Source: Rhodospirillales bacterium (GTDB taxonomy: Bacteria; Pseudomonadota; Alphaproteobacteria; Rhodospirillales; JANQFP01). Taken from it: a stretch of DNA of 64,000 nt. Positions within the stretch are counted from its first letter, which is position 1, and every line of letters begins with the position of its first letter. The DNA is taken from positions 6,392 through 70,391 of the forward strand of contig JANQFP010000216.1 in assembly GCA_028277795.1 (NCBI GenBank), given 5' to 3'. This document shows, piece after piece, positions 54,001 to 64,000 of this stretch. Position numbers: made by a program.

Positions 54001-57000
54001 CCTCCATGAACCGGTGGAACGGGGACTGGTCCTGCGGGGCCACCGCATCGACGCCGGTCACACTGCACCCCCTGTCCCTGAGCACGCGGGCCACGTGGCC
54101 GTCACCACACCCCAGGTCGAGGACGGCGGCGCCGTCGGCCACGTCATCCGCCGCCGCGGTGTGGGAGCTGTCGAAGTCCAGCTTGGGCTGATATCGAGGT
54201 CCCGCCGGGTCCGGCCGGGCCACGTCGAACCGCCGCTGGTAGAGAAGCCCCCAACCCTGGATGCGGGCCAGGACCGTCGCCTTGACCACGTCCTTGGCGT
54301 ACCGCGGCCCGTCCACGTAGCAGATTTCGTTGCCGTAGTAGGTCGGGATGGGCAGCTCCGTGATGGGCCGGCCCGCCAGCATGAGCTGGATGATGATCTC
54401 GGTGTCGAAATGGAAGTCGTTGGTGTTGAGTGAGAAGGGAACGGCCTTCAGCGCCCGCACCGCATAGACCCGATAGCCGGTGTGGAACTCGCTCAGGGCG
54501 GAGCCCAGAAGCCGGTTCTGGAAAGCGGTCAGAATCTTGTTGCCGACGAACTTATAGAGCGGCATGCCGCCCTTCAGCGCCCCTCCCCGGTCCAGCATGC
54601 GCGAGCCGAGAACCAGGTCGGCCTCTCCCGCCGCCACGGGCGCGATCAGGTCGGGCAGCCGTTCGGGGGCGTACTGACCGTCGCCGTGCAGCAAGGCGAC
54701 GGCGTCGAAACCGTTCTCGATGGCGTAATGGAACCCGATCTTCTGGTTTCCGCCGTAGCCCTGGTTGACCGGATTGAACAACACGGTGAGCTTGAACGGC
54801 AGCGCCGCCTCGGTCCCGTGCTCCATGGCCGTGTGGAACGTGCGGTCGCCCGACGAATCGTCGATGATCAGAACCTCGGTGTCGTAATCGCGCAGGCCCT
54901 CAGGGATGCGCGACAGCACGTTGGCGATGGTCGTCTCCGCGTTGTAGGCGACGATGAAGATGAGGACGCGGGGTCGGCTCATGAGGGGCGTTCGCTCACC
55001 TGGTCCATGACCTCGGCCAGGGCCTGCCGCCAATGGGGCGGCACCAGACCGAAACGATCCCGCAATCGCCGCAGTGCCAGGCGTGAGTTGGCCGGACGCC
55101 GCGCGGGCAAGGGGTAGGCCTCCGCCGGAATCGGGCGCACGGTGTCCACCGCCAGCGGCAGGCCGCGGGTGCGGGCCAAGGCGAAGATCTCACGGGCGAA
55201 GCCGAACCATGAGGCGCTGCCCCGACAGGTCAGGTGCAGAATGCCGCCTTTGGTGTCCAGAAGGCGTCGGGGCTCGCCGTCGGCTTGCGCGACGATGGCC
55301 GCGGTGAGGCTGGCGATGGTGTCTGCCGGCGTCGGCGCCCCCACCTGATCGTCGACGATGGCGAGTTCGGGGCGTTCCCGGCCCAGCCGCAGCATGGTGT
55401 TCAGGAAATTTTGGCCGCGCGCGGCATAGACCCAGCTCGTGCGCACGATCAGATGGGCCGCCCCCGCCGCCTGGACGGCCGCCTCGCCCGCCGCCTTGCC
55501 GGCGCCGTAAGCGTTGATCGGGTTGACGGGGGCGTCTTCCGGGTAGGGGGAGCGCCGCCGCCCGTCGAACACGTAGTCGGTCGAGTAGTGGACAATGGCC
55601 GCTCCGGCACGCCGCGCCGCCACCGCCAGGTGACCGGGTGCCAGGGCATTGATCTCGGCCGCCACGTCGGGCTCGGTCTCCGCCTGATCGACGGCCGTAT
55701 ACGCGGCGGCATTGACCACCAGATCGGGCGCCGCATCGTCGACGGTGGCGGCGATGGCGCGGGGGTCGCGAAGGTCCAGGTCGGCCCGGCCGGTGGCCAC
55801 GACCTCGCCCAGGGGGGCCAGGACCTCCTGCAGGACCTGTCCCAATTGTCCGTCCTTACCGGTGAGCAGGATCTTCACGGGGTTCTCGGCCGTAGCACTG
55901 GCGCACGACGGCGGCGCTGAGGGCCACGTCAGCCAGCGGGTCGGTGCTGTTCATCATGCGCTGTTCGATGGAGACGAAACCATCGTAGCCGATGGCATTC
56001 AGGTGGCGGCCGATGGCGGCATGGTCCACGGCGCCGCTGGAACCGAGAACGGCGAGGCCGGGCTCGTTGGCATGCACGTGAACCAGCATCGGCGCCACCG
56101 CTTCGAAGGTGGCCGCGTCCACCTCGTCGTTCTCCACCAGCGCCTTGGCGTCGAGCTGGACGCGGAGCGCCGGATGATCCACGGCCGTCACCAGGGCCAG
56201 CGCCTCCAAGGCCGAATTGATGAAATCGCTGTCGCACGGACCCAGGGGCTCGAAGCAATAGCAGGTGCCATGATCCTCGATGCGCCGGGTGAGGGTGCGG
56301 CAGAAGTCGACGGCCTGGGCCAGGGCGTCCGGGGCCGGGACCGCGCCGCGCCGCCGGCCGCCGCCCCAGATCAGGGTGCGGCCGCCCAGGTCCCGGCAGA
56401 CCTCCGACAGATGGACCAGGAAATCGAGCGTCGCGGCGCGCACCTCGGGCCCTTCGAACAGGCCCAGTTCAGGGTGATCGAACAGCAGGGAATGCAGCCC
56501 GACGATTGTAGGCCCGGCGTCGTCGGCGGCGCGCCGGTAGGCCTCCACGTCCTTTGCCCGGAGCCCATGCCAAGTCTCCGACCATACCCGGCTCGGGGCC
56601 ACCTCCAGGCCGGTAATCCCCAGGGCGGGCAGGCGCCGGAGCTCGTCCGTATGGTCATGAGCGGTGAGCGCGATATTGGAGACGGCGAACGCGGTCACAG
56701 CACGGCGACCGCCTGCGGCCCCCCATTGGGAAGTTGGCCGAGCTCGACCAGGCGGCGGAAACCCGGGTGCCGCGCGGTCAACTCCTGGAAGGTTCCGGTG
56801 TCGACGATCCGCCCCCGATCCATGAGGATCAGCCGGTCGCAGCGGGCCACCGTGCTCATTCGGTGGGCGACGATGATCAATGTCTTGGTCCGCGACAGCT
56901 CGTCGAGGGCGGCCGCGATCTCCTGCTCGGTCTCGTTGTCCAGCGCCGACGTGGCCTCGTCGAAGACCAGGACGTCGGGATCGCCATAGAGGGAGCGCGC

Positions 57001-63000: not shown

Positions 63001-64000
63001 TCGAAGGAGAACGGCTTGTGCCCGTAGGGCAGGCCAAGCAGCAGAAGGCTGGCATTGGCCGGGCTCGCATGGAGGGCGGTGTTCAGCACGTCCGGATCGC
63101 CGGTGACTTCGACGATGATCGGCGAGGATGCGCAGACCTGCTCCAGGTCGTCCGCGGCGCCAATGCCGGTGCCGTCGAACAGGGCGCGGCGCTTGTCGTT
63201 GCGGTCATAGGCGGTGACCTGGAAACCGTTGTGATCCAGCACACGGGCGCACAGGTGGCCCAGGGGCCCCGCCCCCAGGACGGCGCACCGGAGTGCATTG
63301 GCCGGCGTATCCGAGCCGTTGGTCCGGAGCGCCGGCTCCAGGCGGCGCAGCGCCTTGAGCACCACCGCCGTCGGTTCCGCCAGCGCGGCCCGCCGGAGGT
63401 CCATGTCGGCGGGCAGCTTGTGAGCGAACCGCGCCGGCACCACCACGTACTCGGCATAGGCACCGTCTCGGCCCATGACGCCCAGTTCGGCGCGTTCGGG
63501 GCAGCCGATGAAGTTGCCGGATCGGCATTCCCCGCACACGCCGCAGCTCTGGATGCACTCGGCCACCACCGGATCGCCCTCGGCCAAGTCGTTGACATTC
63601 TGGCCCACCGCGGCGACGCGGCCCGAGAATTCGTGCCCGGGCGTGATCGGGTAGGCGGCCTGTCCGTTCTGGTAATAGCCCAGGGTGCCGTTGAGGATTT
63701 CCAGGTCGGTGGCGCAGACGGCGGTGTGGGCCACCCGGATGAGGACGTCGCCCGGGTTCGGCGTCGGCGTCGGCCGCTTCTCCAGGGACGCTTTGCCCGG
63801 GCCGTGGATGACCACGGCCTCGAAAGGACGGTCGAAGAACACTTCTTCCTGGGCGGCCCGGGTCTCCAAGGGGTGGGATTCGATGAGCCCCCTCAGGAGC
63901 CCGGCCGTCTTGTGGGCCCGGTAGTAGGCGATCTCGCGCAATCGCTGGCCCCAGGTCAGACGCTCGTTCACCGGGCTGTCGGCACCGGCGAGAACCCGGC

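Follow-up and report, generated by a model that had tools for sequence, protein, structure and literature searches.

A 64,000-nt window, the whole stretch of DNA analysed here, carries a radical SAM gene embedded in a coupled string of glycan genes together with an ABC exporter, which raises the question of what such an enzyme does there and whether its step is bound to export. The string lies inside a locus for surface glycans that spans at least 60 kb; the host is a high-GC alphaproteobacterium, probably one of the Rhodospirillales.

The gene string and its extent

The features on which the argument depends are the following:

62787..64000, minus strand: GT2-Zn-MDR fusion, C-terminal ~404 codons, with the N-terminus beyond the window
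61051..62790, minus strand: 579-aa protein (unk579), predicted GT-B glycosyltransferase (AlphaFold2 and Foldseek)
60146..61048, minus strand: BtrN-like twitch radical SAM enzyme, 300 aa, with the motif CNRKCAFC (Pfam Radical_SAM and SPASM above cutoff)
59429..60142, minus strand: classical SDR, 237 aa, predicted ketoreductase (adh_short_C2 and adh_short)
58518..59432, minus strand: FkbM methyltransferase (TIGR01444, 88.4 bits against a cutoff of 37.7; Methyltransf_21)
56695..58512, minus strand: fused TMD-NBD ABC exporter, 605 aa (ABC_tran match)
55856..56698, minus strand: xylose-isomerase-like TIM barrel, 280 aa (AP_endonuc_2, 96.6 bits)
54979..55878, minus strand: RmlD, dTDP-4-dehydrorhamnose reductase (TIGR01214, 340 bits against a cutoff of 224)
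53468..54982, minus strand: fusion of a GT2 of the polyprenyl-phosphate glycosyltransferase type with a class I methyltransferase (Glycos_transf_2 and Methyltransf_23)
52686..53471, minus strand: second SDR, of the SDR261 family (adh_short_C2), the conserved partner of the TIM barrel
33118..33912, minus strand: KdsB-like cytidylyltransferase (CTP_transf_3; NF003952, 201 bits against a cutoff of 193)

The first-pass annotation described a minus-strand string of eight genes, from an unidentified gene beyond the window edge to the TIM barrel. Seven of these genes stand, as do six of the seven junctions (ATGA, 2 nt, 3 nt, GTGA, 5 nt and GTGA, in order). The exceptions are the upstream gene and the GTGA assigned to it, as the MDR frame runs on past the window end. 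No in-frame stop was found in that frame from 63971 to the window end; an identical Logan contig (L001) carries it 265 nt further, and the extended frame shares 64% identity with residues 158-640 of a protein of 652 aa in contig L008 that combines Glycos_transf_2 with ADH_N. Because the frame is open and the alignment passes straight across the supposed junction, the "Zn-MDR" is the C-terminal half of a GT2-MDR fusion of ~650 aa and not a separate gene. Inside the window lie the last part of the GT2 domain, a linker and, in full, the zinc alcohol-dehydrogenase domain (ADH_N, 101 bits; Glu_dehyd_C and ADH_zinc_N also match), whose top NCBIfam matches, IolM and Tdh, both lie far below their cutoffs. 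In 10 metagenome loci the gene immediately before an unk579 homologue encodes the same fusion, and in an eleventh, L078, it stands upstream with one further gene between the two.

The GTGA overlap between the SDR and FkbM genes is plausible but not certain, because the FkbM start is ambiguous (GTG at 59432, ATG at 59381 or ATG at 59276) and the gene caller took 59276. The string does not stop at the TIM barrel either: RmlD, whose gene overlaps that of the TIM barrel by 23 nt, the GT2-methyltransferase fusion (top NCBIfam matches AglJ, dolichyl-phosphate hexose transferase and PpgS, all below cutoff), the second SDR, an acetyltransferase and a GFO oxidoreductase come next, their genes overlapping. 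Within 50-64 kb no terminator and no minus-strand promoter was convincing, and the region forms the upstream part of a single long operon with translational coupling. Unrelated contigs (L008/L009, L010, L012, L074, L088, L089 and L096) show this gene order too, which is more than chance.

A predicted BtrN-like dehydrogenase and its neighbours

Both by sequence and by predicted fold, the radical SAM protein belongs to the BtrN group of enzymes acting on sugars and cyclitols. BtrN, the 2-deoxy-scyllo-inosamine dehydrogenase of butirosin biosynthesis (4M7T/4M7S), is collinear with it over the full length and is its top PDB match by sequence (residues 27-274; E 1e-23 for the protein alone, 4e-36 for its family profile) as well as by predicted fold (4m7t, TM 0.79, rmsd 3.6), in a model whose active-site loop 176-185 has low confidence. 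The next distinct structure is SpeY of the spectinomycin pathway (7WZV/7WZX; Foldseek E 3e-8, TM 0.51; sequence E 8e-5), likewise a twitch enzyme, which oxidises a sugar or cyclitol secondary alcohol, but it is far more distant than BtrN and comes from an antibiotic pathway. BtrN converts a secondary alcohol to a ketone and holds a Cys4 auxiliary cluster (PMC10337720). The CX3CX2C motif, a length of 250-300 aa and one twitch domain are common to BtrN and the present enzyme, which, with its single auxiliary cluster, is a twitch enzyme and not a two-cluster SPASM enzyme. In 63 family sequences, C41, C45, C48, C208, C226, C273 and R186 are invariant and C270 is kept in 62. All seven cysteines align with BtrN cluster ligands, the four of the auxiliary cluster with C169, C187, C232 and C235, while R186 (SNRAG) aligns with BtrN R152 (SNRGG), the SNR(A/G)G arginine being common to both. 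No cysteine beyond these seven is invariant (C156 is kept in only 38/63), which favours a dehydrogenase over a Cys-donor epimerase. Dehydrogenase chemistry is well supported by homology, and the predicted function is that of a secondary-alcohol dehydrogenase acting on a sugar.

The two enzymes nevertheless differ in several respects. Identity is only ~27%, and the present family is longer by ~30 residues at the N-terminus and carries an "IRHR" insertion, absent from BtrN, with two invariant family-specific arginines (R169 and R171); because of these, and of the many other arginines that are also invariant, the sequences suggest an anionic substrate. The BtrN gene shares its aminoglycoside cluster with those of DOI synthase and BtrS, whereas genes of this family stand in loci for cell-surface glycans, beside a KdsB-like cytidylyltransferase, an aldolase and an SDR, and the family's substrate is almost certainly not DOIA.

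The family comprises more than 2,000 clusters at 90% identity, and it was followed in 65 species genomes, 37 of them SAR11. Such enzymes had been considered no standard component of LPS/EPS loci, a view that does not hold for this family: every neighbourhood examined consisted of glycan-biosynthesis genes. The conserved partner is the SDR, which starts here 3 nt past the radical SAM stop codon. An SDR of the same cluster lies directly downstream in 43 of 62 genome loci, in agreement with the proposed oxidation followed by reduction, and 51-52 of 65 loci (the figure varies with the way of counting loci) have one within 7 kb; the linkage spans Alphaproteobacteria, Gammaproteobacteria, Chloroflexota, Chlorobiaceae, Latescibacterota and others. 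The dehydrogenase-reductase pair is an uncharacterised sugar-tailoring module, widespread in environmental bacteria and especially in marine SAR11. Methylation, which had been proposed as a linked step, appears as an occasional partner only, with FkbM genes near the radical SAM gene in 11/65 loci. A CTP_transf_3 gene is found within 7 kb in 47/65 loci and is absent from that range in the other 18; the main CTP_transf_3 cluster exceeds the NCBIfam KdsB cutoffs (243 bits against 193, and 169 against 155). Pyruvate aldolases of the HMGL-like or HpcH type are encoded in 31/65 loci, in each case alongside a KdsB-like gene, and HAD phosphatases and SIS isomerases are also present among the neighbours.

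A comparable gene logic, compared as logic and not as sequence, is known from Acinetobacter, in which EpaA/EpaB and AciE-type modules epimerise nonulosonic acids; EpaA (CTP_transf_3 plus reductase) and EpaB (an SDR) epimerise C8 of pseudaminic acid (PMC12053666). In both cases a dedicated CTP_transf_3 cytidylyltransferase accompanies an oxidoreductase and an adh_short_C2 SDR, and in the EpaA/EpaB type one hydroxyl of a CMP-activated ulosonic acid is re-tailored; in EpaA, however, the oxidoreductase is of the aldo-keto reductase type and forms one protein with the cytidylyltransferase, whereas here that part would fall to a radical SAM dehydrogenase. Within the window, no KdsB-like gene or aldolase adjoins the radical SAM gene, and searches for HpcH, HMGL, NeuB and DHQS homologues found none. 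The KdsB-like gene at 33118..33912, 27 kb from the string, is the only in-window candidate for activation of an ulosonic-acid donor and may be linked to the string; homologues of it stand 1.7 kb upstream of the GT2-MDR gene in L077, L082/83, L088, L103 and L104. For this string, the ulosonic-acid link is carried over from the neighbourhoods seen in other genomes.

Frame and cassette

The radical SAM step had also been thought genetically tied to the exporter. The assignment of the latter as PglK/MsbA-like is confirmed by full-length alignments (PglK 5c73/6hrc, E 3e-66; MsbA, E 4e-58), that with PglK running end to end (residues 5-569 against 2-560), so that the 605-aa start is supported by an alignment opening at residue 5. 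MsbA, PglK and HepA are its top NCBIfam models, all below cutoff, and the PglK and MsbA scores lie well below the equivalog cutoffs (257 against 1000 and 286 against 602). Six TM-like segments are present, and the Pfam ABC_membrane model did not detect the TMD. PglK (WlaB, the Campylobacter jejuni lipid-linked oligosaccharide flippase), MsbA and the exporter are all fused TMD-NBD half-transporters, and its gene, as that of PglK, lies in a glycan locus; it is a candidate flippase for a lipid-linked glycan.

The TIM barrel has D-tagatose and D-psicose 3-epimerases as top PDB matches (E ~3e-9), with the NCBIfam models PsicseEpim and IolO below cutoff, and in related loci a member of the SDR261 family invariably accompanies it. 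The second SDR of the window is 62-73% identical to the SDR following the TIM barrel in L004, L008, L074, L077, L088, L089, L096, L103 and L104. When the 579-aa protein is taken as anchor, the ABC-TIM-SDR261 set is kept in loci where the BtrN-like gene is absent or has given way to a B12-radical SAM or an FkbM gene. In Magnetospirillum sp. UT-4 the exporter comes directly after the 579-aa homologue, and no gene for a radical SAM protein lies close by. Since this frame persists without it, the radical SAM-SDR pair is swappable and not tied to export. The frame is thus the GT2-Zn-dehydrogenase fusion, the GT-B protein, the PglK-like ABC protein, the ketose-3-epimerase-like TIM barrel and the SDR, and the swappable tailoring cassette in this genome is the BtrN-like radical SAM enzyme, its cognate SDR and FkbM.

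Searched against Pfam and NCBIfam, the 579-aa protein gave no match; its family counts 543 representatives of 50%-identity clusters at E<=1e-3, nearly all of ~580 aa. The AlphaFold2 model (pLDDT 91.9) has GT-B proteins as top Foldseek matches (UDP-GlcNAc 2-epimerases, polysialyltransferase 5wcn, Kdo transferase WaaA 2xci and BshA), and a GT-B glycosyltransferase of an undescribed family is predicted. The two-Rossmann fold is that of the CMP-sugar GT-B transferases GT38 (5WCN), WaaA GT30 (2XCI) and KrkA GT140 (9YFX), but the protein is ~200 residues longer, shows no significant sequence similarity to CAZy family members in the PDB, and is matched in fold as well by the UDP-GlcNAc 2-epimerases. 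Its profile matches KrkA weakly (E 0.11) on the CMP-binding Ser/Glu motif, with the invariant S492 and E497 aligned with residues through which KrkA contacts the phosphate and ribose of CMP; a search of the family found no (K/R)xHP motif, which sialyltransferases and retaining Kdo-transferases have in common. In metagenome loci, KdsB-like genes stand directly, or one to two genes, upstream of its homologues, and the protein is a candidate transferase for a CMP-activated acidic sugar.

A proposed route and its alternatives

Gene identities and conserved linkage are established by the comparisons above. The full model, in which the cassette oxidises and then reduces a sugar hydroxyl within a surface-glycan operon, has in our estimation an even chance of being correct, each of its functional steps being deduced from homology and from the neighbouring genes. 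In a first step SAM would be cleaved reductively by the radical SAM enzyme, and the 5'-deoxyadenosyl radical would take the carbinol hydrogen from a sugar secondary alcohol; Arg186 may help deprotonation, the electron leaving through the Cys4-ligated auxiliary cluster to give a keto-sugar. The adjacent SDR, presumably working in the reductive direction, would reduce the ketone with net inversion, unless the keto form is passed to other tailoring enzymes, and FkbM would O-methylate the product. The substrate would most likely be an anionic sugar, namely a 3-deoxy-2-ulosonic (Kdo-like) acid, CMP-activated or soon to be so, which the GT-B protein would move onto a lipid-linked acceptor, the ABC protein then flipping the product over the inner membrane.

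The two readings that change the chemistry or the substrate are both unlikely. One has the cassette tailor a cyclitol or aminocyclitol, an inosamine- or inositol-like ring being oxidised (cf. 2-deoxystreptamine) and later built into the glycan. The closest solved enzymes, BtrN and SpeY, do come from aminocyclitol antibiotic pathways, and IolM (scyllo-inosose 3-dehydrogenase) and IolO are among the matches of the MDR domain and TIM barrel, but at scores far below cutoff (137 against 450 and 33 against 300). Of the 65 loci, 5 have a gene for a DHQ-synthase-like sugar-phosphate cyclase immediately before the radical SAM gene, against 47 with cytidylyltransferases, and the window has no such cyclase; the invariant arginine-rich pocket is unlike that of BtrN; and although three GFO/IDH/MocA oxidoreductases and two DegT aminotransferases are encoded in the window, sets of GFO, DegT and acetyltransferase genes are ordinary in amino-sugar pathways. 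The other reading, which we also regard as doubtful, is deoxygenation, a radical diol dehydration yielding a deoxy-keto sugar that the SDR then reduces. AprD4/AprD3 is a known dehydratase and reductase pair of a radical SAM enzyme and an SDR, and by analogy the same two-gene logic could apply here; the tight conservation of the pair would fit an obligatory two-step reaction, and DesII is among the more distant fold matches. The two-electron oxidases BtrN and SpeY are far closer than DesII, however (E 6e-17 against 2e-7), and the Cys4 auxiliary cluster, thought to be the electron acceptor in dehydrogenation, is strictly conserved (C270 in 62 of 63 sequences), whereas AprD4 is not known to have a twitch auxiliary cluster.

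That the radical SAM, reductase and methyltransferase steps build a terminal cap licensing export through the linked transporter, as was first proposed, we consider quite improbable. FkbM and the exporter do share one coupled string, and chain-terminating methyl caps gate ABC export in E. coli O8/O9a, a precedent that might be extended here by analogy. Cap-licensed export is, however, a property of Wzm/Wzt, of which Wzt bears a carbohydrate-binding domain, whereas the exporter here is a fused half-transporter of the PglK/MsbA type rather than such a pair, in which one partner binds the cap, and there is no sign of a capping role. The loci that keep ABC-TIM-SDR without a BtrN-like gene, the Magnetospirillum arrangement and the scarcity of FkbM beside the radical SAM gene all speak against a cap. 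Least probable by far, and in our view hardly credible, is a peptide (RiPP) or cofactor maturase placed incidentally in a glycan locus. The Pfam SPASM match, weak NCBIfam matches to metalloenzyme, tungsten-cofactor and sactipeptide maturases, and EpeE and SkfB among the distant fold matches could be read that way, but those NCBIfam matches cover the N-terminal radical SAM core only, at 20-44 bits against 250-650. The enzyme, a member of the BtrN group, is only 300 aa long, has a single auxiliary cluster and lacks both an RRE and any additional domain; a gene for a precursor peptide would not fit into junctions of 2-3 nt, and the genes around family members in 65 genomes belong to sugar pathways.

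The minus-strand gene string

By ORF listing and direct reading of the minus strand, with domains assigned by Pfam and NCBIfam, the gene string near the right-hand end of the window reads as follows.

Coding regions of the string, in reading order
At least 64000-62787, minus strand: Zn-MDR domain, frame open at the window end
62790-61051, minus strand: uncharacterised protein, 579 aa
61048-60146, minus strand: radical SAM protein, 300 aa
60142-59429, minus strand: SDR, 237 aa
59432-58518, minus strand: FkbM methyltransferase, up to 304 aa
58512-56695, minus strand: ABC exporter, 605 aa
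56698-55856, minus strand: TIM-barrel protein, 280 aa

The junctions, in the same order, are ATGA, 2 nt, 3 nt, GTGA, 5 nt and GTGA, just as the first-pass annotation gave them, and its domain identities were upheld by Pfam and NCBIfam. What it observed was mostly right, with three corrections, which concern the MDR frame, the FkbM start and the continuation downstream. It had placed an "unidentified gene" past the window edge, joined to the MDR gene by a GTGA junction; the MDR frame, however, has no stop codon up to the window end, an identical Logan contig of 11.9 kb (L001) lengthens it by 265 nt, and the extension, including the supposed junction, shows 64% identity to residues 158-640 of a 652-aa protein composed of Glycos_transf_2 and ADH_N domains. 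The continuous frame and the homology to such fusions therefore make the "Zn-MDR" one half of a GT2-MDR fusion, of which the "unidentified gene" is the N-terminus, and rule out a separate upstream gene. The MDR half is a zinc medium-chain dehydrogenase (PF08240, 101 bits) in which the motifs CATD, GHEFSG, CGVCGECRSGNFIGC and GAGPLG were read, and the specific equivalogs Tdh and IolM were not reached. The FkbM methyltransferase is confirmed by TIGR01444 (88.4 bits vs. 37.7) and PF05050 (51.6 vs. 22.7), although its start is ambiguous, the gene caller having picked the ATG at 59276. The TIM barrel matches PF01261 (AP_endonuc_2) with 96.6 bits and has ketose 3-epimerases as its best PDB relatives (E ~3e-9), with an NCBIfam PsicseEpim score of 43 bits vs. 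a cutoff of 300. Past this gene the string runs on through RmlD (23-nt overlap), a GT2-methyltransferase fusion and a second SDR (SDR261, 52686-53471), and then a hexapeptide acetyltransferase, a GFO oxidoreductase and DegT. Scans of 50-64 kb for terminators and minus-strand promoters returned none that was convincing, and a single minus-strand glycan locus occupies everything from about 4.4 kb up to the end of the window.

The radical SAM protein and its neighbourhoods

The 300-aa radical SAM protein, which has no extra domain, is best classed as a BtrN-type enzyme that envelope-glycan pathways have recruited together with a fixed SDR partner. Its SAM-cluster motif, C41-x3-C45-x2-C48 (CX3CX2C), is invariant (63/63) among the family members from genomes over which the conservation of cysteines and arginines was counted, PF04055 matches it with 49 bits vs. 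a cutoff of 29.5, and the predicted fold matches radical SAM structures. Exactly four cysteines lie C-terminal to the core, C208, C226, C270 and C273, and they align to the auxiliary-cluster ligands C169, C187, C232 and C235 of BtrN; C270 is present in 62/63 sequences and the other three are invariant (63/63). The protein is therefore a twitch enzyme with one predicted auxiliary cluster and not a two-cluster SPASM enzyme, whose seven-cysteine motif it does not have, so that only the radical SAM half of the earlier radical SAM/SPASM assignment stands; the Pfam SPASM match (39.5 bits) lies over the twitch-equivalent half. By sequence the best solved relative is BtrN: the single sequence matches it at E 1e-23 and a profile of 29 family members at 3.7e-36, with collinearity over residues 27-274. 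The AlphaFold2 model (pLDDT 85.8) likewise has BtrN with bound AdoMet and 2-DOIA as its best Foldseek match (E 6e-17, TM 0.79, rmsd 3.6 A), the twitch dehydrogenase SpeY coming next and the peptide enzymes EpeE and SkfB, as well as DesII, being much weaker. R186, in the motif SNRAG, is invariant and aligns to R152 of BtrN (SNRGG), which the BtrN structure paper is said to credit with a catalytic role. On sequence and fold the protein passes all the tests of a twitch radical SAM dehydrogenase. BtrN converts a secondary alcohol to a ketone, and its Cys4 auxiliary cluster is thought to take the electron (PMC10337720). Also invariant, and specific to the family, are the arginines R169 and R171, within an insertion absent from BtrN, and R43, R50, R257 and R265, a pattern of residues that suggests an anionic substrate.

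Two other functions were weighed for this protein. Epimerases of the NeoN/HygY type need a cysteine outside the cluster ligands from which the substrate radical regains a hydrogen atom, and the sole candidate here, C156, is kept in just 38/63 sequences, a variability that argues against such an enzyme. A peptide or cofactor maturase is contradicted by the NCBIfam maturase models, which match the N-terminal core only, with 18-44 bits vs. cutoffs of 250-650; in addition, the flanking genes, 2 and 3 nt off, leave no room for a precursor gene, and the conserved neighbours are sugar enzymes. The outcome that the first-pass annotation had named as refuting its reading, classification as a maturase, did not come about. 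As a BtrN-type enzyme the protein would work like BtrN and SpeY. Its context, however, differs from the aminocyclitol pathway of BtrN, and on this point the comparison fails, as the window contains no DHQS-like homologue and such a cyclase is a neighbour in very few loci of the family.

The family comprises at least 2,161 clusters at 90% identity, the best 120 of which are 57-72% identical and essentially unannotated. It has no curated model or characterised member, and literature searches in polysaccharide, O-antigen, nonulosonic and SAR11 contexts turned up no description of it. Scanning one genome per species gave 65 radical SAM loci, 37 of them from Pelagibacterales (SAR11), while the other carriers are Rhodospirillales MAGs, Achromatium, Methylobacter, Dechloromonas, Chloroflexota and SAR202, Chlorobiaceae, Latescibacterota, Neomarinimicrobiota and one archaeon; the plasmid collection contained no homologue at E<=1e-20. 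All ORFs within +/-7 kb of the radical SAM gene were clustered and the main clusters annotated.

Neighbours of the radical SAM gene (within 7 kb, unless stated)
SDR, directly downstream: 43/62 loci
CTP_transf_3 (KdsB-like) cytidylyltransferase: 47/65 loci
Main cytidylyltransferase cluster, directly upstream: 18/59 loci
HMGL-like aldolase fused to an MptE-like domain: 21 loci
HpcH/HpaI aldolase: 11 loci
Either aldolase: 31/65 loci, always with a KdsB-like gene
ABC exporter: 19 loci
446-aa uncharacterised protein: 19 loci
FkbM: 11/65 loci
2-hydroxyacid dehydrogenase: 10 loci
NeuB: 9 loci
DHQS-like cyclase: 5/65 loci

With its main cluster, the cytidylyltransferase exceeds the KdsB cutoffs of NCBIfam, and HAD phosphatases and an SIS isomerase are likewise found in these neighbourhoods. 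As a set, aldolase, phosphatase, isomerase and KdsB paralogue mirror the logic of the Kdo pathway. In SAR11 a cassette recurs (loci L017-L053 and others, e.g. L034 10001-10867) that consists of the HMGL-like aldolase + MptE-like fusion, the KdsB-like gene, the radical SAM gene, the SDR and the 446-aa protein, which has no Pfam match. Every neighbourhood examined sits amid cell-surface glycan genes. The remark in the first-pass annotation that enzymes of this sort are no standard part of LPS/EPS loci holds for model organisms and fails for environmental genomes.

A BtrN-like radical SAM protein is also encoded by the large Campylobacter phages CP20, CPt10, vB_CjeM_WX1, CJLB-12 and CJLB-13 (MK408758.1 78826-79575, FN667789.1, OP654737.1, MW074125.1 and MW373745.1), with about 26% identity to the protein of the window across 84% of its length. 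In some of these records the phage protein is annotated as "BtrN protein".

The 579-aa protein, the frame and the exporter

No Pfam or NCBIfam model matches the 579-aa protein, and when 1.84 billion representatives were searched with a profile, its family numbered 543 members (clusters at 50% identity), nearly all of about 580 aa. Its AlphaFold2 model (pLDDT 91.9) has 155 PDB matches at E<=1e-3, the best 50 of which are all GT-B with probability 1.0, and would give the protein the fold of the CMP-ulosonic-acid transferases (GT30/38/52/80/99/107/140); UDP-GlcNAc 2-epimerases, a CDP-bound polysialyltransferase, the Kdo transferase WaaA and BshA are among the top matches. A sequence profile search of the PDB gave only a weak match, to the GT140 retaining Kdo transferase KrkA (E 0.11), which covers YxFSxxS(S/T)VVxEAxxFG and in which S492-T493-V494...E497 align to S271, S272, V273 and E276 of KrkA. 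In KrkA it is the Ser, Val and Glu of this motif that bind CMP, through its phosphate, cytosine ring and ribose, and the GT-B transferases of CMP-ulosonic acids combine a (K/R)xHP motif with a CMP-binding Ser-Ser/Glu motif (PMC12887879). The 579-aa family has S492 and E497 without exception, but no HP dipeptide was found at the position expected for (K/R)xHP, where Q445 and K447 are conserved instead, and for that reason the protein is not assigned to a known CMP-sugar glycosyltransferase family. Kinship with the SAR11 446-aa protein, with a 585-aa uncharacterised protein (c17) and with a LIC13510-like 532-aa protein of the window was rejected for each, at an hhalign probability below 2%.

With the 579-aa family as anchor in metagenome contigs, complemented by contig look-ups, a recurring order became apparent: KdsB-like gene, in some cases a 2-hydroxyacid dehydrogenase, GT2-MDR, 579-aa GT-B, a variable stretch, ABC exporter, TIM barrel and SDR261. 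The variable stretch, or cassette, holds differing combinations of FkbM, a B12-radical SAM gene, a second 579-aa paralogue, or the BtrN-like radical SAM gene with its SDR, and the nearest syntenic matches to the window are L088 (from TARA), L089 and L096. B12-binding radical SAM genes (~520-620 aa) often fill the slot between the 579-aa GT-B and the exporter (L008 11821-13383; L007, Magnetospirillum sp. UT-4, 5866-7725; metagenome loci L077-L111), and their presence in the place of the BtrN-like gene suggests that one scaffold can receive different radical tailoring chemistries.

This organisation bears directly on the exporter, which the first-pass annotation had tied to the radical SAM step. 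Ten loci without a BtrN-like gene keep the ABC exporter, several of them together with the TIM barrel and SDR261, and in Magnetospirillum sp. UT-4 it directly follows the 579-aa homologue; the exporter therefore belongs to the frame and not to the radical SAM step. It is a single polypeptide of the type IV PglK/MsbA kind, with six TM-like segments and a PF00005 match, whose residues 5-569 align end to end with PglK (E 3e-66; MsbA, E 4e-58), although orthology is not claimed, since the NCBIfam equivalog cutoffs are not reached (PglK 257 vs. 1000; MsbA 286 vs. 602). As a fused half-transporter collinear with PglK and without an extra C-terminal domain, it is unlike the cap-gated Wzm/Wzt systems, in which a separate permease works with an NBD that carries a carbohydrate-binding domain, and the proposal that a terminal cap licenses export is left unsupported, in an interpretation that was partly right. 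Among the ORFs scanned, which are a part of those in the window, neither an ABC-2 permease nor a Wzx, Wzm or Wzt was found. The description of the gene as the only exporter in the window is not firmly assertable because of two large proteins without Pfam match, at 16396-17997 (minus strand, 9 TM-like segments) and 43105-45279 (minus strand, 6 TM-like segments), which could be a Wzy/ligase-type polymerase or another transporter.

The putative pathway and other genes of the window

The gene identities, the conserved radical SAM-SDR adjacency, the BtrN-type cofactor ligands and the frame/cassette organisation are established, and on this ground a mechanism can be envisaged. The radical SAM enzyme would oxidise a sugar carbinol to the ketone, which the SDR would reduce with net inversion or hand over to other enzymes, and FkbM would methylate the product. 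Within the frame, a second oxidise-epimerise-reduce set may consist of the TIM barrel, the MDR domain and SDR261, while the 579-aa GT-B would transfer a CMP-activated acidic sugar and the PglK-like protein would flip the lipid-linked product. A precedent is offered by EpaA/EpaB, responsible for the 8-epimerisation of pseudaminic acid, where a CMP-ulosonic acid is re-tailored by a dedicated cytidylyltransferase, an oxidoreductase and an SDR (PMC12053666). It is possible, though in our opinion rather doubtful, that the radical SAM protein and the SDR are the tailoring core of an unrecognised pathway to a CMP-activated Kdo-like ulosonic acid, assembled by a pyruvate aldolase in place of a PEP-dependent synthase, activated by a KdsB paralogue and installed by the 579-aa GT-B; such a pathway would decorate the surface of SAR11 and many other environmental bacteria and would contain the first radical SAM dehydrogenase of primary cell-envelope glycan biosynthesis, in contrast to those of antibiotic pathways.

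For the window itself, the donor sugar is the weakest link of this model, because its one KdsB-like gene (33118-33912) is 27 kb from the string, no homologue of an aldolase, NeuB or DHQS is present, and the region upstream of GT2-MDR lies outside the window. A tblastn search of the window for DHQS-like, HpcH, HMGL-MptE, NeuB, DHDPS, B12-radical SAM and 446-aa (u446) proteins found no homologue. The ~314-aa uncharacterised protein beside the KdsB-like gene was considered as a possible ulosonic-acid synthase and set aside for its VIGDGYG motif, which is Rossmann/methyltransferase-like.

The known twitch radical SAM dehydrogenases belong to a few antibiotic pathways, those of aminoglycosides and aminocyclitols, and the chemistry envisaged here, if it holds, would add radical chemistry to ordinary envelope sugar biosynthesis. 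The radical SAM family offers a concrete, testable handle on the surface sugars of SAR11 glycan-gene clusters, and these sugars may matter for recognition by phages and grazers. For annotation, the label "SPASM domain protein" in glycan loci hides sugar-acting enzymes and not peptide maturases. The value of the locus lies in a widespread, uncharacterised radical SAM-SDR module, in a new, predicted GT-B glycosyltransferase family and in a recurrent GT2-dehydrogenase fusion, all of them testable.

A second conserved module lies at 30556-40523 (minus strand), in the order 2-hydroxyacid dehydrogenase, HAD phosphatase, ~314-aa protein, KdsB-like gene, SGNH/AlgX-like gene, methyltransferase, carbamoyltransferase, small DUF5989 and SxtJ-like ORFs, and two GFO/IDH/MocA oxidoreductases, an order shared by a Rhodospirillales MAG (L004) and by Magnetospirillum sp. 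UT-4. The 532-aa protein (40457-42055, minus strand) weakly matches NCBIfam TIGR04326, the family of LIC13510 for surface carbohydrate biosynthesis, and shares 52% identity with a 476-aa uncharacterised protein that follows FkbM in L004, being another recurrent protein of such loci. A GT2 fused to a polysaccharide deacetylase (26163-27896, minus strand; an ArnC/ArnD-like combination), a 676-aa GT-C/PMT_2-like membrane glycosyltransferase (21087-23114, minus strand) and the GT2-methyltransferase fusion (53468-54982) suggest that polyprenyl-phosphate carries the sugars during their modification and that their transfer takes place in the periplasm. Branched-chain (C-methylated) deoxysugars in the same glycan are implied by two sugar C-methyltransferases with Methyltransf_13 (zinc-binding) and Methyltransf_14 domains, together with a small cupin (11757-13013 and 15122-16531, minus strand). 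The glycan locus also includes a protein with a heparinase II/III-like C-terminal domain (27900-29624, minus strand), and Magnetospirillum sp. UT-4 has a heparinase II/III-like protein too (L007 1381-3078), beside an asparagine synthase. The Atg22-like MFS gene at 3-1217 lies outside the glycan locus.
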